A DNA stretch of 17,442 nt from Pseudomonadota bacterium (GCA_900299205.1 OMIW01000087.1:1-17442); one strand, 5' to 3'; counted from the stretch's first letter, positions 51 through 15,919 are shown. Made by a program: numbers and translations. Notes: a model not told the origin generated them from the sequence alone.

Positions 51-1493
51 TTGAAGAGCCTTCGAGACCAGCGAGATACCCTGAAGGAGACTTTTTCGGA
101 ATTAGTATCTCAAACCGATCCCTCGGGGCTTGAAGAGTCTGCGGAGCAGCAGGAGCTCGACCTTGACAAAGAATTGCGAGCGCTTCTGGGACCGCTCATA
201 AAGGAGCTCAAGGAGCTTACTCGGCGACCTCGGGAGATAGAAAGGATTCGTTCAGATATCGTAAGGGGGCAACTTCGACTCTCTCGGATTGACAAGGCGA
301 TTGAAAACATTGGCATCTCTCGTGCGCAGCTCACGGATAAAGAGGTCCTCGATAAAATCGATGAAGTAGCCGCCTCGTGGGAGGCGCAGAAAAGAGCGAC
401 CTCGACTGATATAGAGATAAATCGCCAGCGACTCCAACAGAAGGAGGCGGAAAAAATATCGCTCTCGGCGGCTTTAGCTGAGTTATTTGGTCTCTTTTTC
501 AGGAGTCGGGGGAGAAATCTTCTCGTTGCCCTAACGGCTGCTGTGCTTTTTTGGGTTCTGGCACTTGAGGTGTGGAGGAGGTCGATGAGGCTTTCCTTTT
601 TTGCTCGTCGTCAAGCCTCCATGCCCATGCGATTCCTTAATCTCGTGGCGATGGGCGGAGTCGGTATGGGCTCCCTTATCATGTTCGCGGTTGTACTTTA
701 TTTTTTCGGTGATTGGGTACTTCTCATCCTCACTATTGCGCTGCTTGTGGGAATTGTGTGGACGTCGAAACAAGCGTTCGCAAGATTTTGGGCGCAGTTG
801 TCTCTGCTGATGAACGTCGGTTCGGTTCGGGAGGGAGAAGTGGTGGTGATAGACCAGCTTCCCTGGATTGTGCAGCGACTCAATCTACACAGCCAGCTGA
901 TAAATCCTCGGCTATCGGGCGGGTTTGTGAGGGTTCCTCTCAACCACCTGCTTTCTCTGCGATCTCGCCCCCTGAATCCCAGGGAAAAGCTCTTTCCAAC
1001 TAAGGAGGGGGACTGGGTAATTTTGGCCGATGATGTACTTGGACGGATAGCTTTGCAGACACCGGAAGTGGTGAGAGTAGACCTTATGGGAGGGGCCTAC
1101 AAAAACTATCCGACACCGTCATTTCTTTCCCTCCATCCACGAGTTCTTTCCCGGGGGTTCCGTTTATCCGAAATATTCGGATTGGATTACCGTCATCAAA
1201 AACAACTGATGGTCGAGATGGTCCCGAAGCTACGAGAATTTATTGAGGAAAAACTGAGGAACTTGGGATTCGGTGAGGATCTCGTTCAGGTATCAGTTGA
1301 GGTGCACTCGGCAGCATCATCGTCCCTCGAACTGATAGTTCTTTGCGATTGTCCGGGAGAATTAGCCGAGCACTACGATAAATTGAAGAGAAGTATCCGA
1401 CGATTTTTTATCGAAGCGTGCAATACGTTCAATTGGACGATACCTTTTGCACAAATGATGCTACATCTCGCGCCACCACGCTCAGAGGGGTGA
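51..1493 (+). CDS. MscS-family (small-conductance mechanosensitive channel)-like membrane protein with N-terminal coiled-coil region. Possibly 5'-partial: the frame is open back to base 3, so the true start may lie upstream of the window.
   Basis: 480-aa ORF. Residues 1-140 are charged heptad-like (ELDLDKELRALLGPLIKELKELTRRPREIERIRSD). Hydrophobic helices follow (LLVALTAAVLFWVLALEVW; FLNLVAMGGVGMGSLIMFAVVLYFFGDWVLLILTIALLVGIVW). The segment KEGDWVILADDVLGRIALQTPEVVRVDLMGGAYKNYPTPSFLS resembles the MscS beta-domain signature (GDW[IV]..G..G.V..I....T.i.....PN). A TTG at 51 is preceded by GAGGAGG at 33-39 (11-nt spacer), so it is a plausible start, but no in-frame stop occurs upstream within the window. 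Confidence 0.6.
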   Translation: MKSLRDQRDTLKETFSELVSQTDPSGLEESAEQQELDLDKELRALLGPLIKELKELTRRPREIERIRSDIVRGQLRLSRIDKAIENIGISRAQLTDKEVLDKIDEVAASWEAQKRATSTDIEINRQRLQQKEAEKISLSAALAELFGLFFRSRGRNLLVALTAAVLFWVLALEVWRRSMRLSFFARRQASMPMRFLNLVAMGGVGMGSLIMFAVVLYFFGDWVLLILTIALLVGIVWTSKQAFARFWAQLSLLMNVGSVREGEVVVIDQLPWIVQRLNLHSQLINPRLSGGFVRVPLNHLLSLRSRPLNPREKLFPTKEGDWVILADDVLGRIALQTPEVVRVDLMGGAYKNYPTPSFLSLHPRVLSRGFRLSEIFGLDYRHQKQLMVEMVPKLREFIEEKLRNLGFGEDLVQVSVEVHSAASSSLELIVLCDCPGELAEHYDKLKRSIRRFFIEACNTFNWTIPFAQMMLHLAPPRSEG

Positions 1494-1704: not shown

Positions 1705-2841
1705 GTGGGAAAAGATGTGTATGAGATCCTTTCGGACTCACCCAACAAACGGGATGGTTCTACCAATCAGGATCTAAACATTCTTGAGCCGGGTACTCTT
1801 ATCGGCAGAGTGTACCGGATTTTGCGCTGCCTTGAGATTGGCAGGATGGGGGTGGTGTATGTATCGGAAGTTCTTGAGGATGATGTCTCCCCACCTCCCT
1901 TGGTCGTCATCAAAATGCTTTTTCCCTCGATTGTCGCCGACGGAGAGAGTAACCCCCTCTTTGTCAGGTTTCACCGTGAAGTCGATGCGCTCTTCAGAGT
2001 CGCTCATCCAAATGTAGTCGGGGCTCTTCAGTTCATAGGCGTCGACAATCATGTCGGATACTCAATGGAGTATGTCGACGGAGGCGATCTTTCCCGAATC
2101 CTCGCCTCTCAGGGGCCATTCGACGAACAAAAATCCATAGAAGTGCTCACGCAGATCGCGAGGGGCCTTGAAGCAATTCACAGAGCGGGAGTTATTCATC
2201 GAGACCTGAAGCCGGAGAATATCCTTGTTACCCGACAAGGGGAGCCTAAGATCTCCGATTTTGGTGTCGCATATTGTGGGTATGGGCAAAGACTAACCAC
2301 GAGAGGGTCGATTGTCGGCACTCTTTCGTATCTATCCCCAGAATATCTAGAGAAGGGGATAGTTCTCCGTCAAGGGGATGTCTATGCTCTAGGGGCTATC
2401 GGTTATGAAATGCTTATTGGAGAGCCACCTTTTTGGGGACTGAGTCTTTGTGAGACGATCGAATCAAAGGTATCTCGTCCCCCTCCTGACCCACGAGAAA
2501 AAAGGAGTGCTGTATCGAGAGCCCTCTCCGAGATCATAATGAAAGCCCTTGCGACTAACGTTGATGCACGATTTCGGACCGCCAGCGAATTCTGTGATGC
2601 GTTAAAGATGTTAGTCGGGACACCGGTAACTTCTCCACGAAGTAGGCACCTTCTGGACTCTGGGGATACCGTCAAAGAAATCGAGGCCAAATTAAATGAC
2701 GACAATGACGCTTCCGCTCCGATTGAAGTAGGTCAGGCTCCCTCAAGCGCTACGAATATTCAAGAGATTACCTATTGGCTCTCAATTCTGCTTGTCGCTA
2801 TCCTAGGGGGCTTAATAATATTCTTGGCTTTGTCGCGATAA
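1705..2841 (+). CDS. Hanks-type serine/threonine protein kinase with a C-terminal transmembrane tail anchor
   Basis: 378-aa ORF with a GTG start at 1705 (an alternative GTG lies at 1717). Kinase subdomains are readable: Gly-loop LEIGRMGVVYV, invariant Lys in VVIKML, catalytic loop HRDLKPENILV, DFG in ISDFGVA, activation/P+1 GTLSYLSPE, subdomain IX DVYALGAIGYEMLIG. A single hydrophobic helix sits at the extreme C-terminus (ITYWLSILLVAILGGLIIFLALSR), leaving only two residues beyond the membrane. Confidence 0.85.
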   Translation: MGKDVYEILSDSPNKRDGSTNQDLNILEPGTLIGRVYRILRCLEIGRMGVVYVSEVLEDDVSPPPLVVIKMLFPSIVADGESNPLFVRFHREVDALFRVAHPNVVGALQFIGVDNHVGYSMEYVDGGDLSRILASQGPFDEQKSIEVLTQIARGLEAIHRAGVIHRDLKPENILVTRQGEPKISDFGVAYCGYGQRLTTRGSIVGTLSYLSPEYLEKGIVLRQGDVYALGAIGYEMLIGEPPFWGLSLCETIESKVSRPPPDPREKRSAVSRALSEIIMKALATNVDARFRTASEFCDALKMLVGTPVTSPRSRHLLDSGDTVKEIEAKLNDDNDASAPIEVGQAPSSATNIQEITYWLSILLVAILGGLIIFLALSR

Positions 2842-3074: not shown

Positions 3075-4613
3075 GTGAGGGACATTCCCGTGAGATTGAG
3101 AAGCCCTTTTATATTCGTTCGAATCGCCGATTATTGTCGCTGGTGTGTGCTGTTATTTCTTTTGGTTGCCACGCTGCGGTGCGATGCGAGCCCGTCCTCT
3201 GATCCAGAAATTCTTGCTCGCCGAGGCATCTCCGCTCCTGTTAGTTCTGACGGTGAGCAGCTGGTACCGGAGCTCACCCTTGAGAGCCCGATTGGTGGAT
3301 GGACCTCCTCTCAGATGTTGGATATTCGGGGTCGATGTAGCGATGAAACCGTCAATCCAATCGTCGTTAATATTAACGGTGCTCGGTATCTTGTTTCTCC
3401 CAATACTGACGGTGCTTTCGCCCGCTCATTTCCCGCATCACAGGGCAGGAATACCGTTGAGGTCATCTGTCAGAATACCAAAGGAGTCGCACGACAGATT
3501 CGCTCTCTGTATGTTCAAACTGCCCCTCTTCCCCTCAAGGTAGTCCTTACCAGCGATACGGATGGGGTCTACACAGACTTACATGTTTATGAGCCAAATG
3601 GGGCGCATGTCTATTGGGCCCAAACAAAATCTCCTAGTGGCGGATTGTTTTTTCTCAATACGCAGGGGGACAATTTTGATAAACCGGGATACGGTCCCTA
3701 TTTATACGCTCATCCTGCCCCACCTATCGGCGTGTATCAAATCGACGCGAACTATTGGCCTGGAGGAGCCGTTCAGCACACCCTGGGTAATCTTGAGATT
3801 ATCACTAATGAGGGGACTCCTCAGGAATCTCGAAGGCGAGTGCAACGGCCTCTCGCACGACCAGGTGAGACGGCGACTCTTGCCTTCGTGATCATGCGAG
3901 GAATCGCCCAGAGCCCTGTCATTTATGTGCCCGGACAGGACTCCGAGGCGACTATGCCACCCGAGATCGCCAAGTACCGGCAGGAACATCCTCCATCAAC
4001 AGGAGGGGAGTATGCATCCCTACCTCTCAATGACAAAAGTCACCTAAGGGAAGCTGTCGTCGGAGTAGCTCTCGCTCAAGCAAAAGCGTTTAGCCCCCTC
4101 TGGGAACCATCGCAGCGAGATTGCGCCGGCCTCGTTCGGTTCGCCTTCCGTGAGGCGCTCAAGCCAAGAACGCTTGAACAGCGGGTTAAGCTTGGTTTGC
4201 CATCCCAGCTCACGTTTCCGCCAGTGTCGATTATGGCTCGACTTCACTTCCCCGAATATCCACGATTATGGCGGCAGGGAAACGGCACCCACGGAGCCTT
4301 CGCAGACAGTGAGATCTTGATTGGGCATAATTTTCTCCCGATAGGTCGATCGGTTGAAGAGGCACAGAATGGCGATATCCTGGCTTATGCGAAGTCATTC
4401 ACGACGGATGATCCGTTACATCTCATGATAGTAGCGCGGTCTCCCCACGGGGGACTGATGACGGTGTATCATAATGGAGCTCGCGCCCCGCACGGGGCGG
4501 TACGGGTCGTGCGCATCGGTGAGCTTGATACGGCTGATGATGAAACCTGGAGACCGGTCGCGGCAAATCCTCATTTCTTAGGAGTCTATCGGTGGAAACC
4601 CCTCATGGGCTGA
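3075..4613 (+). CDS. Secreted protein. It has an N-terminal signal peptide, a central beta-rich domain (possibly DUF2135/YfaP-like), and a C-terminal papain-fold-like domain with NlpC/P60- or DUF1175 (YfaT)-like Cys/His signatures.
   Basis: 512-aa ORF with a GTG start at 3075, preceded by AAGAAGG at 3064-3070. N-terminus has a hydrophobic h-region CVLLFLLVATLRCDASP. C-terminal ~190 aa carry RDCAGLVRFAFREAL (Cys codon 4122-4124), as in the DCSGLV catalytic-Cys block of NlpC/P60. Later NGDILAYAKSF...PLHLMIVARSPHGGLMTVYHNG (His codon 4419-4421) fits the GDLvff...HvgIY.G.g..iHa pattern. The stop at 4611-4613 overlaps the next gene's start. Confidence 0.6.
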   Translation: MRDIPVRLRSPFIFVRIADYCRWCVLLFLLVATLRCDASPSSDPEILARRGISAPVSSDGEQLVPELTLESPIGGWTSSQMLDIRGRCSDETVNPIVVNINGARYLVSPNTDGAFARSFPASQGRNTVEVICQNTKGVARQIRSLYVQTAPLPLKVVLTSDTDGVYTDLHVYEPNGAHVYWAQTKSPSGGLFFLNTQGDNFDKPGYGPYLYAHPAPPIGVYQIDANYWPGGAVQHTLGNLEIITNEGTPQESRRRVQRPLARPGETATLAFVIMRGIAQSPVIYVPGQDSEATMPPEIAKYRQEHPPSTGGEYASLPLNDKSHLREAVVGVALAQAKAFSPLWEPSQRDCAGLVRFAFREALKPRTLEQRVKLGLPSQLTFPPVSIMARLHFPEYPRLWRQGNGTHGAFADSEILIGHNFLPIGRSVEEAQNGDILAYAKSFTTDDPLHLMIVARSPHGGLMTVYHNGARAPHGAVRVVRIGELDTADDETWRPVAANPHFLGVYRWKPLMG

Positions 4614-6304
4614 ATCGTGTTGTGGTAGATCGCCGAAAGTGGATATTTTCAGCGATATTGCTGGTCGCCACTGTGTTGGCCGGTTCCGCGATATATGGGG
4701 TTCCTCGACTAACCGATTTCGGTCCCTTAGTGAGTGCTCTTCCTTCATCGATAGTCTACCAACCCGTATCCATAGTGCTCGATGGTAATCCTTGGGACCT
4801 GCCTGGGGCGGAGACTAAAGGTGAGACCGATAAACCGCGAGCTTCTCCTTCCGTTTCCTCTGCGGGAGGGGCGACTGCAACACTCCCCGAGGTGCCGACA
4901 TCAGGCACAGTTGAAACTGAGACCTGGGAGCTGGAAAGTAAATCATCGATCATTTCGGCTGAAATCGTCTCACCACGGCGTGTGATCAGTGCCGGTGAGT
5001 ATCTGTTCTCGGATGCCGGCCCTTTTGGTCCTAAGCTGGCTCCCTTGGTGCGAGCTGAAGTAGGCACATTGATAACCTCATATGAGCGCTCGCTTCTCTC
5101 GTTTTCTCCTGATGGCAGATTGCTGTTGACCGCATTGAAGCTTGGAGCAGTCAGTGGTTCGCAATTAGTCGTTACCTTCAACGATGAAAACGCGTCTGTT
5201 GCCTTCTTGGTGCCTCGTCGTGGAGCCCGATTGTTTAGTGCATTTCTGCGAGCGGTTATCCAATTATCAGCGCGCAAAGCATTCTCGCTCAGGAATGGTT
5301 CGGTGATTATAGAGGCGCGCATCGGACGAAGCACCGTTGGAATAGCGGAGACCGAGCAGTGGTATGTGATAGGCTCAACACCTCGCTCGGTAGCGCAGGC
5401 GTTGATTGATTCTCCGCCTGGGACTCAAACTCATAAGGTCAAGGGGGATGTCGTTATTTCGATCTGTGGTGAGGGACGACTAGGTGGGGCATTGCTGCGT
5501 ACCTTGACCGGCAGTGAACGATATCAGGTAGCCGTTGGAGTGGACCTGCGGATTCCATCACAGCCGAAGCTCACAGCTCTCCTTCCACCTGCCCGCATTT
5601 TTTCCGCGCTCTCTCGCCCTGTTCCCATTTCCCTCTTGCGATCAATTCCACACGACGTTGGAGTTGGGATTATTTCCTCCATTCCGATGCCTCTGAGTGC
5701 GGTAAGTGCTCAGTGGGTTAGTTTGGCCCGTGGTGAATCGTCGCTCTTGGAGCTACCTGCGGCCGATGGCGTAGGGCTTGTCTGGGATATTAATGCGGAC
5801 GACTCGGTTGCGGCAATTACGGTTGCTGTTCCTTCTGAACGCCCGGATGGAGTCGAAGAGACGTTCTGGCGGAAGGACCTTCCGCGAGGAAGTTGTGGTG
5901 CAAATTCTGTTCAAATTTATGCGACGACTACCTCCCTGTACCAGAGCATTCGAGAGTCGTGCGATGGTGCGTCTTTATCACTCGCATCTTCCCTTGATTT
6001 AACGGCTGCAGAGAATTCATCGCAGCTGGTAATAACTGTTCAGCCGAGTCAGATTCTGGCTGGTATCATTGACCAGGGAACCCCCAAATTTCCGAAAAGT
6101 ATTGGGTGGCAAAGGTCATGGCAGAGGAGAGCAGGTGCAAATCCATCATCAATGGAGGAAGTAAAGGTTCTGGTCAAGGATCTGATACCGTTGATGGAGG
6201 GCGCCCTGAGTAGATTGCCAGCGATTGTATTTTCGGGCAACAAGGGGAGTGATGGCTTCGTATGGTTGACATCGCGCATGAAGAGTCCGAAGCGGAGTGG
6301 ATGA
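4592..6304 (+). CDS. Periplasmic protein anchored by one N-terminal TM helix. No recognisable catalytic motif. Candidate accessory protein of the macroglobulin operon (size and topology reminiscent of YfaA/MagB-type partners).
   Basis: 570-aa ORF with a GTG start at 4592, with AGGAG at 4580-4584 (7-nt spacer). Its start overlaps the upstream stop by 22 nt. The N-terminal segment RRKWIFSAILLVATVLAGSAIYGV is a signal-anchor-type helix. The remainder is Ser/Gly/Ala/Val-rich and beta-like. Its stop at 6302-6304 is 2 nt before the ATG at 6307 of the macroglobulin gene. Confidence 0.7.
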   Translation: METPHGLNRVVVDRRKWIFSAILLVATVLAGSAIYGVPRLTDFGPLVSALPSSIVYQPVSIVLDGNPWDLPGAETKGETDKPRASPSVSSAGGATATLPEVPTSGTVETETWELESKSSIISAEIVSPRRVISAGEYLFSDAGPFGPKLAPLVRAEVGTLITSYERSLLSFSPDGRLLLTALKLGAVSGSQLVVTFNDENASVAFLVPRRGARLFSAFLRAVIQLSARKAFSLRNGSVIIEARIGRSTVGIAETEQWYVIGSTPRSVAQALIDSPPGTQTHKVKGDVVISICGEGRLGGALLRTLTGSERYQVAVGVDLRIPSQPKLTALLPPARIFSALSRPVPISLLRSIPHDVGVGIISSIPMPLSAVSAQWVSLARGESSLLELPAADGVGLVWDINADDSVAAITVAVPSERPDGVEETFWRKDLPRGSCGANSVQIYATTTSLYQSIRESCDGASLSLASSLDLTAAENSSQLVITVQPSQILAGIIDQGTPKFPKSIGWQRSWQRRAGANPSSMEEVKVLVKDLIPLMEGALSRLPAIVFSGNKGSDGFVWLTSRMKSPKRSG

Positions 6305-9300
6305 GTATGACTGAAAGGGATGAGCCGATGAGCATGAGCGGCGATACTAATCGATCATCAATCGCTTTCGGTAGAATCGGTCAGCAGTGTGCCATGGGCA
6401 GGGTACCCAATGCCCTAAGGTTTTTTATCCTTTTTGGGATTCTTGCTCTGGCTACGGCCGTAAGGGCTGATAGCCCCTTTTACCTAACGGTTTCTCGCTC
6501 CATGAGCGAAAAAGAGCCGGTGCAGATCCGTCTCGATTCATCTGACAATCAATCTCCATTTCTTCTCCGTATTCTTAAGGCATCAGATGTTGACGCCTAT
6601 CTTGATGGCCAAGTGATGTTGAGTCGAGCATATGAGCCGCCGACAACGATTCCCAGTTTGTTGCGGGTTTTCGTTGATGGAGCGAATAAGGCAGTTTCTC
6701 CCCTGACGACTCTGAAGTCAGCGCTGGATAAAGATTTTCGGCGAGCACTTCACGATAGCGTTTCTCCACCTTTGCGCCGCTTCTCATCGGAACCGTTCGT
6801 GGGACCACCATCGATCAGGTATGACCCCCCTAAAGGTTTTTCTATTATTCGACAAACGTACCTTGATTTGTCGACTAGCGGCAAAAAAGCGGATGATGCT
6901 TGGTGGTGGTTTGGCGAAACCCCGTGGGCGATGCCAGAGCAGGCTGGTTATCGAACAAGAGTCATATACATAGATCCCCTGCCACCGGGGCTTTACACTG
7001 TTCAGGGAATTCAAGGAGATAATGAAGCTCAGGCGTTACTGCAAGTTAGTGCGTTATCGGTACAGGTAAAACAGTCAAGTAAGGATCTGCTCATTCGTAT
7101 AATGAACAGAGAAGGGCACCCAGTTTCGGGCGTGACGGCTCGAATTCGCGGGCGGTCTGGATCATGGGAATCGATATCAGGAGTCTCGAATCAGGACGGT
7201 GAGCTGACGGTGACCCGTTCAGAGCCCTTCGATGGACGGCTCGTTGTTCAGGTACATTCAGGATTGTATGGGGATGCTCTGGTAACAACTGATTTCCTCG
7301 CGTCGAGTCACGAGGTTCAGGATGCATTTATCTTTACAGATCGCCCAATTATCAAGCCCGGTGAAGAAGTATTCTTTGGGGGGATTGTCAGAAACTTTCG
7401 CGATGGTCGGCTGGAGGCAGGGACAACTGGAAGCGCGGGGTCGATGACCCTAAAAAACGGAGACTCGACCATTGGTCCTTTGCCAATAACGGTTTCGCCT
7501 GAGGGTAGCTTCAGTGGCATGGTTCCTCTGCCATCAGATGCGATACCGGGGCTGTATCGAGTTACCGCGACTCTCGATGAAAAGCGATATCAGGGGGAGG
7601 TGCGGATTCAGGAGTATGTGAAGCCTAGCTTTTATCTGACATTTGTTGAAAAACCGGCAACATTAATGCCGGGCCAGAATGTTCGATTGGTGTTGTCAGC
7701 GCAACGGTACCGCGGTGGACCTGCTCACCATGTCCGCTATGAGGTTTTTGTTTATAGGAAGCGATTTGAAACGCCTCAATTCGTTGCTGATGCTGGCGGA
7801 GGATTGGTGACGGGGAGCGACTATTACAACGATGTCCGAAGTGGTTCTGCTCTGACTCAGCCACAGCGAGTTTATAGCACCGTCGATAAGCGGATTCAGG
7901 ATGATTCAACCGGGGCAGTGTCATTGAATCCCTGGGCAAGCAGTCCCCTGATGGATGACTTGGGAAAAGCCACCATTGAATTTGTCATTCCTGAGGTACC
8001 TCAGGAGCAAGTGAACGAACAAGGGGGACAGGAGTGGATATATACAATCGTGGTGCGTGCTCAGGATGATGAAGGGGGTAATGCAACTGCATCTGAAAGT
8101 ATATATGTCACCAAAAGTTTGGCATACGCTGCGGCTGGCTTTGCAAAGACCTTCTATGATGAGGGAGATCTTGCGGTTCCATTATCCATCCAGACCTCCA
8201 ATGCTTCCGGCGATTCTGTGGGGCTCGCGAAAGGAGAGGTCCGATGTACCTTGGAGGGAATTGAGGGGAACGAGAATCCCCTACAAACGATACCGTTTGT
8301 GACTGACGACAAAGGTTCAGCGTTAGTATCGATTCCTCTTCACCGAGGTGAGCGAGGAGTGCTGCGAGCTTATCCGAAGGTTACTCAGGTAGAAGACCGG
8401 CCGAATCCATCGCCAATTGAGCCCGACCCAAGTCAGACGATTATCGTTGGTAAAAAAAATGAAAAGATAGTGAAAGAGCCGGTGCTCAATCTGATTCAGT
8501 CGCGTTCGGTATTGTCACCCGGTGAGCACGACACGCTCGTCGCACTCCTTCCTGAGGGTGCGCTTCTTGGTGAACGTCAACGTATGTGGGTATCGGTTGC
8601 AGGACGCAAAATATATGATCGTATGAGCATTCCCCTGAGCGGATCGACACTGAGTATTCCTATTAAAGCAAAGCCGGAGTATGGGACTGCTTTCTATGTC
8701 TCGGTGGCATTGCCGGTCGCGGAAGGACGCTTTGAGGAGCGCACGGTTAGTTATCGGATCGTTCCGAAAGATCAGCTTCTGAGGGTTGAGGTGGCACCTG
8801 AGATTGATGTGGTGGCTCCGTTGCAAGATGCCGCGATTGTCCTCAAGGTGACTGATTCCGAGGGAACGCCGGTGCCTCAGGTCGAAACCTTTACCTCCGT
8901 GGTTGATGAGGCGGTGTACGCCGTTCAGCCTGAGTTCCGACCAACGCTTCTTTCATTCTTTCTCCCCATCGATCGACTCAACGTGAGTTCATTCCTATCC
9001 GATGAACTTCAGGGATATGGGTATGCAGACCGCTTCTTTCGAGCGAACTATCGACTCCATGCATTGAAGGTTCAAAATCAGCCCAAGGATAGGTTGATGC
9101 GGGATACCGCTGGCTTCTTTCCTCATCGCATCACGGATGCAAACGGTGAGGTGCGGATTGTGGTTCCCATGCCATCAAATGTAACGAAGTGGCGGGTTTC
9201 CTCGTTGGCAATCGATCGGTCTGGGAGATTGGGCGAGGGGCGGGGCTACTTCTCCACCAAGAGCGATATCTCCGTAGAGGCTCGGGTCCCTTCGTTTCTT

Positions 9301-11316
9301 CGACAGGGAGATTCGGTGACTGGGAGCGTTGTGGTGGGAAGCCAGGTAGCATCCCAAGAGGTTTCAGGTGAGATAAATATAGCGGTGGAGCGCGGACTTG
9401 GAATTGGTTCGCCAGTGGTTCAGCGACCATTCTCTCTTACCGCCTCCGAGTCGGCGGTTGAACCGCTCAATCTAGTGAGTAGTTCAAATGTCGGAATGGG
9501 GGGAGTACGGGTAGAGATAAAGGGAGCAGCGCCTTCTCTGAAGATTGGTGGAGGACGAGAGTTTGATGTGACCCTTCGCTCTTCTGCAGAAGCGTTCAGT
9601 GAGGCAATTCCTCTCACCTCGGGATTCTGGAAGCTGGAGCGTCCGGAGAGTGTCAGCCGACTAGAGATTATTGGCACCCCTGGATTGGCCGCAGCGGTTA
9701 AGGAGGCCCAGAAATTCCTTCTCAGCTATCCCTATGGCTGCACCGAGCAGCTGTTAGCCTCGACCGTCCCCAATTTCCTAGCGCTTGCGGGGGAAAACTC
9801 ACCAGTAGCGAAGCAAAACCTCGCAACGGGATTGAGGAAACTATTAGCGCATCAGGGCCAGAGCGGAGGCTTTGGTATGTACGCAGGGGACAATCCCTCA
9901 GTTGACCTCACTGCCCTGGTGTATTCGACTCTCATTCCGTTTAAGGATGAAGCATCGCTTACGGGTACCGAAGTTGAGCGGTTGCTGGATGTAATCTTAG
10001 AACGGGGCAAGCAATATTTTCGAGGGATTAAAGAGGAAAACCCCGCAGAGGTATCGGTTGCGCGGGCGCGGGTGTTCGCCAAAATCGGCCCATCAGAGGT
10101 TCCGGGTTCAAATGGAACACTGGGAGAGGACACGTTGAGGAGGTTGTTTGAGGAGGTTGCCCGTAACGATAGTGCGCCGTCAATATCGGCGATAGCCACC
10201 GCATCAGAGCTTCTTCGTCAGTGGGGTGACTATCCTCCTGACGGGGTGTTCCCGCATGGAAATCGGGAAGCGTTCGTTTCACTGGTGAAGAAGCAGTTAC
10301 ACGTCGCCATATCTCAGATTAATTCCGATAGTTCTGGTAAAGGGATCGGGAAGGGTGATCTCCCGTTCTGGTCAGAGGGGAGTGCGCAGACGGCTTCAGT
10401 ATTGAGTGAGCTTTTCGCGTGGGATGAACTCAAGCCTGAGGAGGAGCGAACACTCGCTGAGTATCTCATGAAAGCGTACGATCCTGAGGATGGGTGGGGC
10501 TCCACTCTTGAGACCTCCTCGGTATTGCTCGGTCTGAGGGATTATCTCAGAGTTCGTGAAATTGGATCTAATGAGAGGGAGAAAGCTGATGGACGGGTAT
10601 GTCCGAGCAGTGTCTCGTTGGGTATCGGGTCCGAGACAGTTGCGTGTTTATGCCAAGAGTCGACTGTCCACTGTCTGATCGATAAAGAGAAGCTACGTGT
10701 GTCCCGAGAAGGCCACGTCTTGGTTAAATTGCCCGATTTGCCGAAATCATATCAACTAACTGCTCGTGTAGACCGAGAGGGTAAGCCGGGAGAAACTCCC
10801 CCAGCCGCAGGGGCTCTTCGCGTTGAGCGTACGTTGCTTCGAGTGATTGGCGGAGGCAAAACAGAAGCGGTAACCTCATCGACCAAGCTCCACCGTGGGG
10901 ACACGGTATTAAGTATTGTACGATTCTCCGATCTTCCCGCACCGCGACGACGCTGGCGGGTGAGAGCTGCGAGTAGTCTGTTCGTGGTGAAAGACACGAT
11001 ACCATCGATTGCCATCTCCGTGAATGACGAGCGCGAGGTCCTTGCTGATGCAGGTATTTCTGGTCCTGCGGAGTCAGAGGCATCGAATGATTATTGGGGC
11101 TCGATTCGCGAGACCCATCGGTTCCCGTGGCACATCGAGCGCGTCTTTCAGCTTCCCCGGAGGGAGTTTATTGGGAAGACAAGAACCGTCTACACCGGCT
11201 GGAAAGTTCTGTATTCCGGTAAAGCATCGCTCCCTGCGGCTCGCGTAACGGATATGTATAACGGTGAGCGATATGGGTTGGCCACGGGCGGGGTGCATGA
11301 AGTGGTTGCTGAATAG
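6262..11316 (+). CDS. Alpha-2-macroglobulin family protein (bacterial A2M/thioester-containing protein) with an intact thioester motif. The likely true start is ATG 6307 (GGAG 9 nt upstream) or ATG 6394, just before the signal peptide.
   Basis: 1684-aa ORF. Signal-peptide-like MGRVPNALRFFILFGILALATAVRA|DSP has no lipobox Cys. Thioester pentapeptide GCTEQ lies in LLSYPYGCTEQLLAS (codons 9736-9750, Cys residue ~1160 of the long ORF), at the position expected for the A2M thioester domain. The long beta-rich N-terminal two-thirds is consistent with macroglobulin (MG) domains. Overall length is typical of bacterial A2Ms (1500-2000 aa). The stop is at 11314-11316. Confidence 0.9.
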   Translation: MVDIAHEESEAEWMSMTERDEPMSMSGDTNRSSIAFGRIGQQCAMGRVPNALRFFILFGILALATAVRADSPFYLTVSRSMSEKEPVQIRLDSSDNQSPFLLRILKASDVDAYLDGQVMLSRAYEPPTTIPSLLRVFVDGANKAVSPLTTLKSALDKDFRRALHDSVSPPLRRFSSEPFVGPPSIRYDPPKGFSIIRQTYLDLSTSGKKADDAWWWFGETPWAMPEQAGYRTRVIYIDPLPPGLYTVQGIQGDNEAQALLQVSALSVQVKQSSKDLLIRIMNREGHPVSGVTARIRGRSGSWESISGVSNQDGELTVTRSEPFDGRLVVQVHSGLYGDALVTTDFLASSHEVQDAFIFTDRPIIKPGEEVFFGGIVRNFRDGRLEAGTTGSAGSMTLKNGDSTIGPLPITVSPEGSFSGMVPLPSDAIPGLYRVTATLDEKRYQGEVRIQEYVKPSFYLTFVEKPATLMPGQNVRLVLSAQRYRGGPAHHVRYEVFVYRKRFETPQFVADAGGGLVTGSDYYNDVRSGSALTQPQRVYSTVDKRIQDDSTGAVSLNPWASSPLMDDLGKATIEFVIPEVPQEQVNEQGGQEWIYTIVVRAQDDEGGNATASESIYVTKSLAYAAAGFAKTFYDEGDLAVPLSIQTSNASGDSVGLAKGEVRCTLEGIEGNENPLQTIPFVTDDKGSALVSIPLHRGERGVLRAYPKVTQVEDRPNPSPIEPDPSQTIIVGKKNEKIVKEPVLNLIQSRSVLSPGEHDTLVALLPEGALLGERQRMWVSVAGRKIYDRMSIPLSGSTLSIPIKAKPEYGTAFYVSVALPVAEGRFEERTVSYRIVPKDQLLRVEVAPEIDVVAPLQDAAIVLKVTDSEGTPVPQVETFTSVVDEAVYAVQPEFRPTLLSFFLPIDRLNVSSFLSDELQGYGYADRFFRANYRLHALKVQNQPKDRLMRDTAGFFPHRITDANGEVRIVVPMPSNVTKWRVSSLAIDRSGRLGEGRGYFSTKSDISVEARVPSFLRQGDSVTGSVVVGSQVASQEVSGEINIAVERGLGIGSPVVQRPFSLTASESAVEPLNLVSSSNVGMGGVRVEIKGAAPSLKIGGGREFDVTLRSSAEAFSEAIPLTSGFWKLERPESVSRLEIIGTPGLAAAVKEAQKFLLSYPYGCTEQLLASTVPNFLALAGENSPVAKQNLATGLRKLLAHQGQSGGFGMYAGDNPSVDLTALVYSTLIPFKDEASLTGTEVERLLDVILERGKQYFRGIKEENPAEVSVARARVFAKIGPSEVPGSNGTLGEDTLRRLFEEVARNDSAPSISAIATASELLRQWGDYPPDGVFPHGNREAFVSLVKKQLHVAISQINSDSSGKGIGKGDLPFWSEGSAQTASVLSELFAWDELKPEEERTLAEYLMKAYDPEDGWGSTLETSSVLLGLRDYLRVREIGSNEREKADGRVCPSSVSLGIGSETVACLCQESTVHCLIDKEKLRVSREGHVLVKLPDLPKSYQLTARVDREGKPGETPPAAGALRVERTLLRVIGGGKTEAVTSSTKLHRGDTVLSIVRFSDLPAPRRRWRVRAASSLFVVKDTIPSIAISVNDEREVLADAGISGPAESEASNDYWGSIRETHRFPWHIERVFQLPRREFIGKTRTVYTGWKVLYSGKASLPAARVTDMYNGERYGLATGGVHEVVAE

Positions 11317-13393
11317 AAATACGCTTCGAGAAGTAGCCTCGATATTTGTCATCGCACAAAGTCTGGCGAGTGGGGGTGGACTACAAAGACGGGCGGAATC
11401 GTACGCAGAGCGGTATACCAAAGTGGGGTATACCCTTCCCGAACGAATTGTCGTCACCGAGGCGGTAAACGGTGATGGATCGTTATCTGGACTACATGCA
11501 GGTGGCTGGTCACCGGGAGTCATCGGACTGCGAGCAAATCCAACGGGATTATTTGGTATCGATCAGTATCTTGCCCATGAATTAGCTCATGAGGCGGTAT
11601 TTCGGACCTGTGGAGGAATTCCCGAGTGGAAAAGTGAAGCGCTCGCGATGCTCTTGAGTGGTGAGCTCGCACAGGTCTGGGAGGTGGAGCAATCGGCTCT
11701 TAAGGATCGTGTGCATGATCGCAAGCTCCTGTGGGAGAGCGTCCGGGGTGTAAGGTCTTTCGAACCGGGTGCTGCTCGCGCACTACGTCAGATATTGCGA
11801 GCGTACGCACATCACAAACAACGACCGTGTGAGTTGCCGGAGGCAGCGGCCCAGGCTTTGCGTGGGCCAGTCCGAGATGAAACCCCTCGTTGGGTTGCAC
11901 TGTCTCTTTCGAGTGGTCGCTTGCTCGCCAAAAAGGGAGACATCTTCGATGAGGTCGCACCGGCCTCTCTGCTAAAGCTCCTCTATGTTGCGAGCGATAC
12001 TCGTGCTCTCTCCGTTGAGCAGGTTCAGGGGCTGCTCCGCAGTGATGAGGATCAGATTCGAGGGAGCAGTTCATTCGATCTAGGTCGCTACATGCTGATG
12101 TCAGCGCCTCTCCGAGATCACAGCAGTCTGCGAGAAGTTCCCCCAGCTCCGAGTGTTCTGATGGGTCAGGCAGATGCAGCCTCCTATCCCCTCCAGGGCT
12201 CATTGCAGGCGATTGCCCAAGCTGTTCGCAGTGCCATTCTTTTAAAGGGACGTTCATCTTGGAGCCCTTTGGTTAAGTTTGATGAGGATGAGAAGGCAAC
12301 AATCGGCATGGCCTCACAGAGCGTTCGACAGCTGATTCGAGAGCAGTCGGGCTGGGTAAAAACAGGCACAGCATCTTTGCACGATGGCACGCCCACAGAA
12401 GGAGTAATAGCGGTTGTGTGGCCGGCAACAGATCCGACCGTTCTACTGGTCGCTGCCCGAAACGGTGTGAAGGGAGCCCAGGTCTGGAATGGAGATGAGC
12501 CCACGCTCAATCGGGTCATGAAGCTTCTTGCGCCGTTTTCTCGAGATACGAAGAGTGAGGTTCTTTCGTTGCTTCCCCGAAACAGCTTTTCTATAAAAGC
12601 GCCATTTTCGGATACCTCCTGTGAACGGTTGATCCTCGATGATGGTGGCATTACCTCGACCTGTGGTGCTATTGAGATAGAAACCACCGTCAAGGGAGCC
12701 CTCCGTCGGCGATTCTTCCATGGAGTTCTCTCGTTTCGAGAGGATGCATTGGTTCTTCGGACGGATCCATACACCTACGGAGAGTATGTGGTTGAGGGCG
12801 AGGTAGCCCGGGAAGCTGGAGAACTGCGTGAGGCAGTTCAGATGGTCGGTGGTTGGAATAGTGCAAATGGCAACCACGGTCATCGATGGGGGACCGTGTG
12901 TGATACTTCGCATTGCATGGTTCAGAAGGGAAGCTCATCCCAATTGCTGCCACCAATCTCTCCTGAGCAGCTTGAACGCGTCGAACGCATATTTAGGATG
13001 CTTTCCGAATTTGCTGCGCGGCGAGGAGAGCGATGGTTCGAGTTTTCTTACAGCAAGCCAGCGGAATGGAGTCGAACGGTGCCAGTTATAGATGTTACCG
13101 CACGGATGGGGCTCGAGGGCAGTCTCTCGGTGTATCGTCAGCGAAACAAGGGAGGAGACGTGGCGATCGTGTTCAGCGGTGACGAGGTTACCCATGTAAC
13201 AACCTGCGATACTCTGATGGTAAAGCTCGATCTTCCCTCTTGCCCATCGCGAATCACGCAAGAGGAGGGGCTTGTTGCATTTCAGGGCGACATAGTCGGT
13301 CACGGTCGGGGGCTATCGATATGGGACTGGAATCGTCGTTGCATCGAGTCGCATTGCTCGGTTGAAGAAATTCTCCGGAGTAGCTATGGGTGA
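11264..13393 (+). CDS. Secreted multi-domain protein. It has an N-terminal zincin-like domain with a HExxH motif, a central PBP/beta-lactamase-like domain (SxxK ... KTG), and a Cys/His-rich C-terminal region. The probable start is ATG 11297, overlapping the A2M stop.
   Basis: 709-aa ORF. The weak signal-like N-terminus MKWLLNRNTLREVASIFVIAQSLASGGG begins at 11297. HELAH lies in QYLAHELAHEAVFRTCGG (11576-11590) and is followed by EALAML, a possible third ligand Glu. SLLK in APASLLKLLYVA (Ser 11966-11968, Lys 11975-11977) and, ~131 aa later, KTG in GWVKTGTASLHDGTPTEGVIAVVWPATDPTVLLVAARNG (12359-12367) match the serine-transpeptidase/beta-lactamase motif spacing and the context after KTG. The C-terminus carries repeated SHC/Cys-His blocks (GHRWGTVCDTSHCMVQ; RCIESHCSVEE). 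Confidence 0.65.
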   Translation: MSDMGWPRAGCMKWLLNRNTLREVASIFVIAQSLASGGGLQRRAESYAERYTKVGYTLPERIVVTEAVNGDGSLSGLHAGGWSPGVIGLRANPTGLFGIDQYLAHELAHEAVFRTCGGIPEWKSEALAMLLSGELAQVWEVEQSALKDRVHDRKLLWESVRGVRSFEPGAARALRQILRAYAHHKQRPCELPEAAAQALRGPVRDETPRWVALSLSSGRLLAKKGDIFDEVAPASLLKLLYVASDTRALSVEQVQGLLRSDEDQIRGSSSFDLGRYMLMSAPLRDHSSLREVPPAPSVLMGQADAASYPLQGSLQAIAQAVRSAILLKGRSSWSPLVKFDEDEKATIGMASQSVRQLIREQSGWVKTGTASLHDGTPTEGVIAVVWPATDPTVLLVAARNGVKGAQVWNGDEPTLNRVMKLLAPFSRDTKSEVLSLLPRNSFSIKAPFSDTSCERLILDDGGITSTCGAIEIETTVKGALRRRFFHGVLSFREDALVLRTDPYTYGEYVVEGEVAREAGELREAVQMVGGWNSANGNHGHRWGTVCDTSHCMVQKGSSSQLLPPISPEQLERVERIFRMLSEFAARRGERWFEFSYSKPAEWSRTVPVIDVTARMGLEGSLSVYRQRNKGGDVAIVFSGDEVTHVTTCDTLMVKLDLPSCPSRITQEEGLVAFQGDIVGHGRGLSIWDWNRRCIESHCSVEEILRSSYG

Positions 13394-13831
13394 CATGGTG
13401 GACAGGTAATCCGCAATGAATGACGCACTGTGGGGGACTCCCATGATTGCCCCCCGGTCACTCTTTGGCACTACGCCGAAAGGAAGCCTCTTTGGGGATG
13501 CTATCTCTTTGAAGCGGCGGCTCAGTAAAGTGGTAAAAACCGATCAGCTCAATAATAATAACGATTGAACCCAAAATGGGCAGAGCGGTTCACGGCGCCG
13601 TTTTTGAAGTTTTTCTTCGGTGATTGGTGGGTTAGCCCTGGACCACTAACCGATCCCTCAAGTTATGAATCTCTTATTCCGATACCGTCTTTTCGCGAGT
13701 CTCGAATCGGATCGGTTTTTTTAGCCGCAAACTGGATCGTATGGCTCCCTAAGCTCACCCTTCTTAATCGATAGTTGAAGAGAAAAAGGTCATCGGATTA
13801 AACTGGCCCCGCAAGGCATAGTGGCTTTTGA

Positions 13832-15919
13832 ATGCGGTCGAGAGAGGGAATTTTAGCTAACATTGAGGTTCTTATGGAAACAGTAACAAGCGATTTTGTT
13901 ATTTGGCGTTTCTTTTATCTGGTTTTGATCGGATTGGTAGGGTTTATCGCGTATAGAGGGCGTTTTATTCGTTACATTCCCAATAATCGGGTAGGTGTAG
14001 TAGAAAAGTTTTTTAGCACCCACGGATCGGTTGACGAGGGAATCATTGCTCTCAATGGAGAGGCTGGATATCAGCCGTCGGTGTTAAGAGGTGGATGGCA
14101 TCTTATGAAGCCGTTCATATACCGGATTCATAAGGTACCTTTAGTAACCATTCCGCAAGGCAAGCTTGGGTACGTTTTTGCGCGGGACGGCAAGGCACTA
14201 CTTCCCGAGCAGACCCTTGCGTCTAATGTTGAGGCATCTGACTTTGAAGATGTCGTTGATTTTCTCAGCAAGGGTGGGCAAAAGGGGCCTCAGCGGAAAA
14301 TTCTTCGGGAAGGAACTTACGCAATCAACCTCGCCCAGTTTGTCGTCATTACCCACGATACGCTCTACTATCACGATCTCGATGCGGGTGATGGCGCGCT
14401 GTTTCAGCAGATGGCTGAAGTCATCGCGGACCGCGGCGGTTTTGAGCCGGTCGTAATCAAGGACCGTGATGATAGTATCGGTGTGATAACCGTTCACGAT
14501 GGGCCATCGCTTAGTGAGGGCGAAATAATCGCCCCCATTGTCGGCAACGATGCCGGGGATAGGGATACCTTTCACAATAACTTTCAGGATCCGGAGGCGT
14601 TTCTCCGAGCTAAAGGAAGGAGGGGGCGACAATATCAGGTGCTCGTTGAAGGTACCTACTACATTAATCGATTATTTGCGACAGTTGAAGTCGTTCCGAA
14701 GACGATCGTAGAGGTGGGTCAAGTTGGTGTAGTGGTTTCGTACGTCGGAGCTCTCGGTGCGGATTTGTCGGGACTAGACTATAAGCACGGCGAATTGGTT
14801 CGGCAGGGTTCTCGTGGCGTATGGGAAACGCCGCTACTTCCTGGTAAATACGCTTTCAATACGTACGCTGGTAAAGTTGTAATGGTACCAACGACGAATT
14901 TTATTCTTAAATGGAATCGCTCGGAGACCGGTTCCCATAGGTTTGACGAAAATCTTGCAGAAGTTTCTCTTATCACTAAAGACGCTTATGAGCCGTCACT
15001 GCCATTAAGCGTTGTTGTGCATATTGATTATAAGAAGGCACCTCTGGTAATTCAGAGATTTGGAGACATTAAGCGGCTTGTCGAACAGACACTCGATCCA
15101 ATGGTTTCGGCCTATTTCAAAAACGTAGGTCAGACACGGACGTTGATTCAACTTCTCCAGGATAGGAGCGAAATTCAGCAGACATCATCGATGGAGATGA
15201 AAGCAAAGTTCGCCCACTACAATCTTGAGCTCGAAGAAGTATTAATTGGGACTCCGACATCAGGAGCGACCTCAGGGCAGATAGAGCAGATTCTGAATCA
15301 GCTGCGGGCCCGACAGCTTGCAGAGGAACAGGTGGAAACATATTCCCGTCAGCAGAAAGCATCGGTCAAAGAAAGGGAATTGAGGGAGACCGAGGCAAAG
15401 GCAAGGCAGCAGCAGGCGCTCACCGAATCTGAGATCAGTATCGAGATTCAATCAAATGAGGGAAAGGCCGAGTACCACCGGGCTTTGCAGCAGGCGGCTC
15501 AAATTCGTGCGCTTGCGGAGGCTGAAGCTGAGCGTGCAGCTCGAGTAGGAATTGGGCAGGCCATGGCTATCGAAGAGCAGGTGGCGGCCTATGGGGGTGC
15601 TCAATACCAGGTTCTGCAACAGGTGATAAACCGCTTTTCGGAAGCTATCGAAAAGTCCCGTGTAGATGTGGTTCCTAAGATAGTAATCGGCGGGGCTCAG
15701 GCCGGTAATAGTGAAAACTCGGGGCGCGGATTCTCTGGCGGTGGCGGTGCTAATGTTATCGAGGGGCTGATTGCTCTTTTGCTGTCCGAGAAGGTCGGTC
15801 TCGATATCCTGAACGAGTCTCGACCGCCACGAAATCCTGCCACCGAGGCAATGCGAAAGGCGATATTGACAAATATTGAAGCGGCAAATGAGACCAGTGA
15901 TCTCGAAGTGGGTAAATGA
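13832..15919 (+). CDS. SPFH/band-7 (flotillin-family) membrane protein with a long C-terminal Ala/Glu/Gln-rich coiled coil. The probable start is ATG 13874.
   Basis: 695-aa ORF. The N-terminal TM helix FVIWRFFYLVLIGLVGFIAYRG is followed by a beta-rich SPFH-like region. The C-terminal ~200 aa are flotillin-like EA/Q-rich coil (ARQLAEEQVETYSRQQKASVKERELRETEAKARQQQA...ALAEAEAERAARVG). A GAGG at 13865-13868 precedes the ATG at 13874. Confidence 0.7.
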   Translation: MRSREGILANIEVLMETVTSDFVIWRFFYLVLIGLVGFIAYRGRFIRYIPNNRVGVVEKFFSTHGSVDEGIIALNGEAGYQPSVLRGGWHLMKPFIYRIHKVPLVTIPQGKLGYVFARDGKALLPEQTLASNVEASDFEDVVDFLSKGGQKGPQRKILREGTYAINLAQFVVITHDTLYYHDLDAGDGALFQQMAEVIADRGGFEPVVIKDRDDSIGVITVHDGPSLSEGEIIAPIVGNDAGDRDTFHNNFQDPEAFLRAKGRRGRQYQVLVEGTYYINRLFATVEVVPKTIVEVGQVGVVVSYVGALGADLSGLDYKHGELVRQGSRGVWETPLLPGKYAFNTYAGKVVMVPTTNFILKWNRSETGSHRFDENLAEVSLITKDAYEPSLPLSVVVHIDYKKAPLVIQRFGDIKRLVEQTLDPMVSAYFKNVGQTRTLIQLLQDRSEIQQTSSMEMKAKFAHYNLELEEVLIGTPTSGATSGQIEQILNQLRARQLAEEQVETYSRQQKASVKERELRETEAKARQQQALTESEISIEIQSNEGKAEYHRALQQAAQIRALAEAEAERAARVGIGQAMAIEEQVAAYGGAQYQVLQQVINRFSEAIEKSRVDVVPKIVIGGAQAGNSENSGRGFSGGGGANVIEGLIALLLSEKVGLDILNESRPPRNPATEAMRKAILTNIEAANETSDLEVGK

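Follow-up and report, generated by a model that had tools for sequence, protein, structure and literature searches.

Bacterial alpha-2-macroglobulins (A2Ms) were reportedly first described, in two forms, by Budd et al. in 2004. Papers of 2013, 2018 and 2025 distinguish Type I, which bears a thioester and is linked to pbpC, from Type II (MagD, YfaS), which is without the CXEQ motif and belongs to a six-gene operon. ECAM of Escherichia coli and the Salmonella A2M use a bait-plus-thioester architecture on proteases; MagB anchors MagD, and MagD traps a protease (that of tobacco etch virus, TEV) non-covalently, without a thioester. According to the 2025 paper, the mag operon protects against the peptidoglycan-targeting type VI secretion system (T6SS) effectors VgrG3 and Tae1, and the function of Type II is called unclear there owing to its missing catalytic residues. 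Here we analyse a 17,442-nt stretch of DNA from a Pseudomonadota bacterium (GCA_900299205.1, OMIW01000087.1:1-17442; hereafter the window), in which a four-gene operon at positions 3075-13393 encodes an A2M with a GCTEQ thioester motif among mag-type partners. This locus fits neither published definition: it carries the thioester that Type II is without, it has neither the lipobox nor the pbpC of Type I, and its accessory genes are of the Type II kind.

The published dichotomy of a thioester form paired with pbpC and a multi-gene form without a thioester had been quoted correctly in an initial annotation of the window made from sequence alone. In our literature search covering 2013-2025, we found no thioester-bearing A2M in a mag-type operon, a prior mention in the 2004 founding description being possible, and nothing relevant on Myxococcus A2Ms or on the DUF families involved. 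We consider it likely that the locus is a four-gene, Sec-exported envelope-defence operon homologous to yfaATSQP/magABCDEF, with a macroglobulin that keeps an intact thioester. Judging from sequence comparison, we take it for a conserved and probably ancestral form of the mag/yfa "trap and repair" system, one that bears the thioester.

Seven long open reading frames (ORFs) lie within the window, all on the + strand, and four of them make up the operon studied:

3075-4613, + strand: gene 1, secreted fusion of YfaP-like and YfaT/MagC-like NlpC/P60 parts, 512 residues (ORF call, Pfam)
4592-6304, + strand: gene 2, N-terminally membrane-anchored periplasmic protein, 570 residues, in the YfaA/MagB position (ORF call, transmembrane segment)
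6262-11316, + strand: gene 3, A2M; longest ORF 1684 residues, likely start 6307 to 6394 (Pfam MG2, A2M, TED and A2M_BRD)
11297-13393, + strand: gene 4, secreted HExxH plus penicillin-binding-protein (PBP) transpeptidase-like plus SpoIID-like protein, 698 residues, predicted distant relative of YfaQ (DUF2300) (motifs, profiles)

The A2M carries an intact thioester motif inside a thioester domain

The gene 3 product has macroglobulin (MG) domains, a bait-region domain and an alpha/alpha thioester domain (TED) with G-C-x-E-Q, and is a member of the thioester-containing superfamily (A2M/C3/TEP). Pfam recognises MG2, A2M (MG7) and TED in it, together with a weak match to the bait-region domain A2M_BRD, so that the expectation that the large ORF would match A2M models was borne out. 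Translation likewise agrees with the proposed 1684-residue ORF and its intact GCTEQ. The features of the protein are as follows:

6394-6468, + strand: Sec signal peptide MGRVPNALRFFILFGILALATAVRA, followed by SPFYLT; no Cys and no lipobox (read from sequence)
9004-9099, + strand: putative bait region ELQGYGYADRFFRANYRLHALKVQNQPKDRLM, directly before RDTAGFFPH at the start of MG7 (position only, between the A2M_BRD match and the Pfam A2M domain)
9115-9345, + strand: Pfam A2M (MG7) domain (Pfam)
9682-10587, + strand: TED, alpha/alpha toroid (helices at residues 208-509 of the structure model, Foldseek)
9697-9978, + strand: Pfam TED match (Pfam)
9736-9750, + strand: GCTEQ thioester motif, residues 1159-1163 of the 6262-11316 ORF, coded by GGCTGCACCGAGCAG (translation)

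Homologues of the A2M open with an equivalent signal and then the SPFYLT motif. The signal of the window protein contains no Cys, in line with the Sec signal without a lipobox that had been read from the sequence.

When all PDB sequences were searched with the single sequence, Anopheles TEP1 was the sole match, and its GCGEQ thioester is where GCTEQ falls in that alignment. For the last 751 residues (window 9061-11313), AlphaFold2 with 32 homologues gave a model with a mean local confidence (pLDDT) of 82 and a predicted template-modelling score (pTM) of 0.80. It has the MG7-CUB-TED-MG8 layout, running from a beta-sandwich through CUB, the alpha/alpha toroid (model residues 208-509) and CUB again to a second beta-sandwich. 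One toroid helix has the thioester Cys (model residue 227) at its N-terminus; Pfam and model thus agree that CTEQ falls inside the thioester domain, as had been anticipated. The best Foldseek matches of the model are the native E. coli A2M (4ZIU/5A42) and the Salmonella A2M (4U48), with E ~1e-30 and template-modelling scores of ~0.6, followed by native C3, C5, A2ML1 and TEP1.

The thioester is conserved throughout the clade

A whole-database search recovered 35 full-length or near-full-length relatives of the A2M at 30-44% identity, all of which (35/35) have CxEQ at the same place. Among 33 aligned clade members, G-C-x-E-Q is invariant (33/33), as is the longer pattern Y-P-x-G-C-x-E-Q-L, and GCxEQ is present in 36/36 genomic loci that cover the site. 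We further searched 1.84 billion representative proteins exhaustively with HMMER and took the best 150 relatives; CxEQ is kept in 118 of the 119 full-length proteins among them. In 27 of these relatives, each of ~1600 residues, the only Cys is without exception that of the thioester. Since the motif aligns with TEP1 GCGEQ, lies inside the TED and is invariant in the clade, we do not regard GCTEQ as a chance or relic motif.

The sole full-length protein among the best 150 without CxEQ is P0144, whose similarity to the window A2M ends near residue 1019. No alignment to the TED was obtained for its C-terminal region, and the protein may represent an independent loss or replacement of the thioester domain.

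Relationship of the A2M to YfaS and YfhM

As reference loci we used E. coli yfaA-T-S-Q-P, E. coli yfhM-pbpC and a yfa operon on a Citrobacter plasmid. Scored with the hidden Markov model (HMM) of the clade, YfaS reaches 254 bits and YfhM 129 bits, and global hhalign comparison gives 381 versus 233. At the N-terminus, the clade profile aligns SPFYLTVERSFS with GTFFLLADSSFS of YfaS. YfaS of E. coli and Citrobacter is without CxEQ, and YfhM has GCLEQ and the lipobox LAGC. At the thioester site, YfaS reads EPWGGV----INT against YPYGCTEQLVHTT in the clade, that is, a deletion in YfaS.

BLASTP matches the TED region of the A2M to YfhM (residues 1107-1506) and not to YfaS; its N-terminal and MG7 regions match YfaS better. 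The better match of the TED to YfhM is expected if the TED of YfaS has decayed. In a neighbour-joining tree of 65 A2Ms with 100 bootstraps, YfaS fell near the mag-type thioester groups; support was 3-47%, and the tree was not used as evidence. When metagenomes were scanned with the YfaS alignment for thioester forms with DUF2138 or DUF2300 neighbours, almost only E. coli contigs were retrieved. A plasmid search with YfaS gave one further Type II operon, that of Citrobacter, and unrelated A2Ms of Deinococcus and Meiothermus.

The gene set is conserved across phyla

We scanned synteny with one genome per species and identified 39 species-level loci of the clade in Syntrophobacteraceae, other Desulfobacterota, Bdellovibrionales and Myxococcota, the last including cultured Corallococcus, Myxococcus, Pyxidicoccus, Archangium and Cystobacter. 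One or more homologues of gene 1 lie upstream of the A2M in 28 of the 30 loci with enough upstream sequence, and a gene 4 homologue lies downstream in 25 of the 30 with enough downstream sequence. The same gene set and order recur in three or more phyla. The neighbours are not housekeeping genes: DUF2135 and DUF1175 are signature families of yfa/mag operons, and co-occurrence with the A2M is high (28/30 and 25/30). Comparison with the yfhM-pbpC and yfaS/magD neighbourhoods showed that the DUF2135 and DUF1175 partners are shared with yfa/mag.

Group g2 (P0145, P0155) has the same layout in five genes: YfaP-like protein, MagC, a 442-519-residue protein, A2M and a 774-820-residue protein. In two loci of group g3, L085 and L087, a PF00905 transpeptidase protein (48 and 94 bits) is encoded separately after the thioester A2M, and in L085 the transpeptidase is succeeded by a separate SpoIID-like protein (24.9 bits, above the cut-off) and then a small HExxH protein. 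Next to acidobacterial and spirochaetal thioester A2Ms lies a gene of MagC-like or YfaP-like type. CxEQ is present in all related lineages that have mag-type neighbours (g1, g1myx, g2 and g3). The initial annotation had proposed a "hybrid or third arrangement"; its pairing of a thioester with a mag-type gene set holds, but in place of a one-off hybrid we find a widespread conserved lineage.

The locus of one metagenome-assembled genome, labelled "Proteobacteria bacterium" (L031), has an extra gap of ~1.6 kb (7980-9626) between the gene 2 homologue and the A2M, and no gene 4 homologue was detected downstream in it.

Operon layout and gene junctions

The four genes lie on the same strand with closely packed junctions. 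Gene 2 starts with GTG at 4592, 9 nt after an AGGAG, and overlaps the gene 1 stop at 4613. The gene 2 stop at 6304 is followed by an ATG at 6307, and the A2M and gene 4 overlap between the ATG at 11297 and the stop at 11316. All of these junction coordinates are as originally read. The longest ORF of gene 4 opens with a GTG at 11264. The same starts for genes 2 and 4 were called independently on an ENA contig with 99% identity.

The start of the A2M is uncertain, because the Sec signal MGRVPNALRFFILFGILALATAVRA begins only at residue 45 (nt 6394). Candidate starts are 6307, 6328, 6334 and 6394, 1684 residues being the longest possible ORF, so that the gene 2/A2M junction is anything from a 2-nt gap up to ~90 nt, and "abutting" under start 6307 alone. 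Of the proposed translational-coupling geometry, the two overlaps therefore stand, while the abutment depends on the A2M start. Export or anchor signals are present on all four products, including every neighbour of the A2M, which had been described as secreted or membrane-anchored. A terminator scan across the operon showed no prominent internal terminator (16 terminator-like sites versus 10.9 expected, all weak), and promoter and terminator scans gave counts close to shuffle expectation and were uninformative. None of the four operon proteins (0/4) matches a known anti-phage defence model in PADLOC.

Gene 1 fuses YfaP-like and YfaT/MagC-like parts

Pfam finds a Glucodextran_B-like domain at residues 65-138 of gene 1, DUF2135 at 216-257 (35.5 bits, cut-off 22) and DUF1175 at 300-510 (166 bits). 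Both DUF families had been named as ones to look for among the partners, and both lie in this one protein, above cut-off.

3267-3845, + strand: YfaP-like part, beta-sandwich plus DUF2135/YfaP_C motif (Pfam; E. coli YfaP has the same domain pair)
3972-4604, + strand: DUF1175/MagC (NlpC/P60-like) domain (Pfam; alignment with E. coli YfaT)
4119-4136, + strand: DCAGLV, with the putative NlpC/P60-like catalytic Cys (unchanged in an alignment of six homologues, YfaT among them)

The motif first noticed as papain-like, DCAGLV, corresponds to the catalytic Cys of NlpC/P60, and both His residues are conserved with it: the Cys-His-His set is intact, D-C, H and H being invariant through to E. coli YfaT in the alignment. 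The two halves of gene 1 are separate proteins in E. coli (YfaP and YfaT) and separate adjacent genes in Myxococcota.

Gene 2 encodes a membrane-anchored protein

The gene 2 product has a membrane helix at its N-terminus, followed by ~530 residues of periplasmic body, and its family is conserved beside the A2M in related loci.

4640-4702, + strand: transmembrane segment WIFSAILLVATVLAGSAIYGV (read from sequence)

It has no match in Pfam (19 family members included), NCBIfam or PDB (profile search included). The likeness to YfaA/MagB consists of size, position and N-terminal topology.

Gene 4 combines three candidate peptidoglycan-enzyme modules

The gene 4 family was assembled from 17 sequences of other genomes. 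Invariant across all 17 are HExxH and a following Glu, SxxK, KTGT, a Glu (E502) in V-V-x-x-E, CDTxHC and GHGxG. In the window these correspond to:

11576-11590, + strand: HELAH (HExxH), with an invariant Glu ~16 residues on (family alignment)
11966-11977, + strand: SLLK (SxxK) of the penicillin-binding-like domain (family alignment, PDB profile)
12359-12370, + strand: KTGT of the penicillin-binding-like domain (family alignment)
12788-12916, + strand: SpoIID-like N-terminal motifs VVEGE (invariant Glu) and CDTSHC (family alignment, PDB profile)
13298-13312, + strand: GHGRG of the SpoIID-like domain (family alignment, PDB profile)

The window protein itself has no Pfam match above threshold and no direct DUF2300 match, and 11 of the 17 family members show weak SpoIID Pfam matches, all below the family cut-off. 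Against PDB, the family profile matches only two kinds of protein, SpoIID (5I1T, 5TXU, 4RWR) and penicillin-binding enzymes (PenA/PBP2, FtsI, class D beta-lactamases and a DD-carboxypeptidase), the latter aligned at SxxK. Whole-database searches, by profile and by single sequence, had at least three proteins among the matches listed. Furthermore, the centre of the profile matches the PF00905 transpeptidase proteins of L085 and L087 (E 8e-10 and 2e-9), and its C-terminal part matches the separate SpoIID-like protein of L085 (E 1.4e-10). Because the profile matches separate proteins of related operons in this way, gene 4 can be read as a fusion of HExxH, transpeptidase-like and SpoIID-like modules. 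The PBP-like SxxK and KTG noted earlier in this partner are confirmed as invariant, in a domain homologous to the PF00905 proteins at the same place in related operons.

E. coli YfaQ, annotated as "tandem DUF2300", has SxxK at residue 60, within a segment alignable to the L087 PF00905 protein, a SpoIID Pfam match above cut-off at residues 312-374, and HExxH at residue 520. The SpoIID scores are 27 and 28.9 bits for the YfaQ proteins of E. coli (L081/L082) and Citrobacter, respectively, and Citrobacter YfaQ likewise has an N-terminal SxxK and a C-terminal HExxH. With moderate confidence, based on motif and profile matches, we propose that the same three modules are fused in different orders in gene 4 and in YfaQ. 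This points to a peptidoglycan-enzyme origin for the uncharacterised YfaQ/DUF2300.

Against E. coli PbpC, the gene 4 profile makes contact at SxxK only (E 0.055). The SxxK stretch of Myxococcota gene 4 proteins (L012, L015 and others), PYGSVLKPFVY, is nearly identical to SPGSVLKPFVY of E. coli PbpC, with no similarity beyond the motif.

Surrounding genes

Upstream of the operon, window 51-1493 (+ strand) encodes a 480-residue membrane protein (597 residues on a longer contig, L001), for which Pfam, NCBIfam and PADLOC gave no match. It is followed at 1705-2841 (+ strand) by a Hanks-type Ser/Thr kinase of 378 residues, which lies 234 nt ahead of the operon and has a membrane helix at its C-terminus. 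The kinase matches PADLOC models of the anti-phage kinase PD-T4-6 (E 1e-65), models that also catch ordinary kinases. An Archangium locus has a kinase-like ORF after the A2M.

Downstream, a 62-residue ORF called on the sister contig occupies 13416-13604 (+ strand), with a terminator-like hairpin at 13582-13604 just after gene 4. A 695-residue SPFH/Band-7 protein with a long coiled-coil tail follows at 13832-15919 (+ strand), 440 nt beyond the operon; Hyalangium (L032, 20965-23013) has a homologue (E 1e-91) ~4 kb downstream of its operon, and the gene is absent from the other loci. The partial ORF at 16538-17442 (+ strand), which runs off the end of the window, has an N-terminal membrane helix and the motifs GGSTV ... 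GGGNDI, read by eye as a putative SGNH/GDSL hydrolase. SGNH hydrolases also come before the yfa operon of the Citrobacter plasmid, perhaps by coincidence. Adjoining the g3-type A2M operon of L085 (1595-3323) are an Imm26 immunity-like gene and a PIN/PhD toxin-antitoxin pair, which hint at an inter-bacterial conflict neighbourhood.

Proposed function, evolution and alternatives

Under the trap-and-repair interpretation, the gene 2 product would hold the A2M at the inner membrane, much as MagB anchors MagD. A protease breaching the outer membrane would cut the bait region, probably around nt 9004-9099; the A2M would then collapse, and its exposed thioester would bond covalently to the protease, as in ECAM and the Salmonella A2M (SaA2M). 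The NlpC/P60-like, transpeptidase-like, SpoIID-like and HExxH modules would trim and re-crosslink damaged peptidoglycan, and such repair by wall enzymes would be the counterpart of the logic proposed for YfhM-PBP1C.

Outside Gammaproteobacteria, the mag/yfa gene set is normally accompanied by an intact thioester, a pattern that breaks the Type I/II dichotomy. The spread of thioester mag-type loci suggests that the thioester-less form is derived: we infer that the thioester-bearing form is older and more widespread, and that gammaproteobacterial Type II is a derivative without thioester and KTG. A bolder proposal, tentative and in our view doubtful, is that the ancestral bacterial A2M system, and the most widespread one, is the thioester mag-type operon, a periplasmic machine with a covalent trap physically coupled to peptidoglycan enzymes; the Type II systems of E. 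coli and Pseudomonas would be degenerate offshoots without thioester and KTG. On this proposal the thioester form may capture injected cell-wall-degrading effectors as well as proteases, and DUF2300/YfaQ/MagE would gain a first functional assignment.

Several observations weigh against the trap-and-repair interpretation and its evolutionary corollary. Thioester formation, bait cleavage, every enzymatic activity and the trap-and-repair function are deduced from sequence. The direction of evolution is tentative, the bootstrap values for YfaS being below 50%. No similarity between gene 2 and YfaA/DUF2138 was found by BLASTP or by hhalign with one and two template sequences, so that its anchor role has position and topology to go on; DUF2138, which had been listed among the domains to seek in the partners, gave no significant match to gene 2 by Pfam, BLASTP or hhalign. 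The link between the gene 4 family and YfaQ is weak in hhalign (E 3e-5, probability 73%, 443 collinear columns), and a gene 4 structure model built from a three-sequence alignment was unusable (pLDDT 34). Finally, the second PBP motif of gene 4 is SCN in Myxococcota, SDE or SDT in the window subgroup and SDE, not SxN, in the window protein, whose transpeptidase-like domain may therefore be catalytically altered.

The hybrid idea can also be taken literally, as recombination that grafted a Type I (YfhM-like) TED into a Type II (YfaS-like) gene of a mag-type operon and so re-acquired the thioester. The split BLASTP result, with the TED matching YfhM and the N-terminal and MG7 regions YfaS, is what such a graft would leave behind, but the deletion of the motif and the degenerate TED in YfaS explain that asymmetry as well. 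The occurrence of CxEQ in every related lineage with mag-type neighbours is more economically accounted for by one ancient retention than by repeated grafting, and there is no composition break around 9682-10587; we regard the graft as improbable. If instead CTEQ were a sequence relic, with no thioester formed and trapping non-covalent as in MagD, whose capture of TEV protease without a thioester indicates that covalent chemistry is not strictly needed, the motif would be expected to drift. Yet G-C-x-E-Q and the flanking YP[YH]G...L are invariant across ~25-44% identical proteins, and the retention of the thioester Cys as sole Cys in the 27 relatives speaks equally against decay, which makes this explanation very improbable.

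Peptidoglycan protection or maintenance could also be the main job of the operon, for instance against the peptidoglycan-degrading effectors of competitors, with the A2M as scaffold or as covalent trap for non-protease attackers and the wall enzymes doing the essential work. Three or four of the accessory modules have peptidoglycan-enzyme folds, and many hosts (Myxococcota, Bdellovibrionales) are predatory or social soil bacteria. However, the bait-plus-thioester architecture, a hallmark of cleavage-triggered covalent capture, is under strong constraint, as the single-Cys proteins indicate, and ECAM and the Salmonella A2M turn the same architecture on proteases. We judge this account unlikely as the main one, although it overlaps with trap and repair and does not exclude it. 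The chance that the four genes are mere neighbours and not one functional unit is negligible: uncertainty at the gene 2/A2M junction would leave room for it, but the genes share a strand, overlap at two junctions, have no prominent internal terminator between them and recur in the same set and order in three or more phyla.

Trap and repair thus remains the explanation we prefer. YfaQ (DUF2300) can be reinterpreted as transpeptidase-like, SpoIID-like and HExxH modules. Both A2M types would then be tied to cell-wall enzymes, which could explain why mag protects against peptidoglycan-targeting T6SS effectors. Myxococcus and Corallococcus are genetically tractable hosts in which covalent trapping and the accessory proteins could be studied together.

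Comparison with known systems

With Type II (magABCDEF; yfaA-T-S-Q-P), the locus shares a multi-gene, same-strand operon around a Sec-exported, non-lipoprotein A2M that is nearer YfaS than YfhM. It also shares DUF2135 (YfaP) and DUF1175 (YfaT/MagC) partners, a large partner with SxxK-bearing, SpoIID-like and HExxH modules like those of YfaQ (DUF2300), and an N-terminally anchored protein of ~560 residues. Unlike YfaS and MagD, which have lost the thioester, its A2M keeps GCTEQ. The gene order is P+T, anchor, A2M, Q-like, in contrast to A, T, S, Q, P, and a single fusion gene encodes both YfaP and YfaT. In the Q-like protein the modules come in another order and KTGT is still present, and the anchored protein is without detectable DUF2138 similarity.

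With Type I (YfhM/ECAM and pbpC; SaA2M), the common ground is CxEQ in the TED, a matching native-state fold from MG7 to the C-terminus, and the coupling of the A2M to a penicillin-binding-type peptidoglycan enzyme. In contrast to YfhM with its LAGC, the A2M here has no lipobox, and the window contains no pbpC/PBP1C and no glycosyltransferase-51 partner. The penicillin-binding-like domain is instead embedded in a different, three-module protein, and overall similarity is lower (YfhM 129 versus YfaS 254 bits).

Group g3, exemplified by L085 (MagC, A2M, YfaP, PF00905 transpeptidase, SpoIID-like protein, HExxH protein), has a thioester A2M and the same accessory modules. Unlike in the window, these modules are separate genes in another order, the A2M is ~1530 residues long, and no gene 2 homologue was detected. 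Further afield, eukaryotic TEP1, complement C3 and human A2M share GCxEQ at the homologous site (TEP1 alignment) and the MG/CUB/TED fold. The window A2M differs from these eukaryotic thioester proteins in its ~12-15% identity to them, in being without anaphylatoxin or C345C domains, and in its periplasmic setting with wall-enzyme partners.

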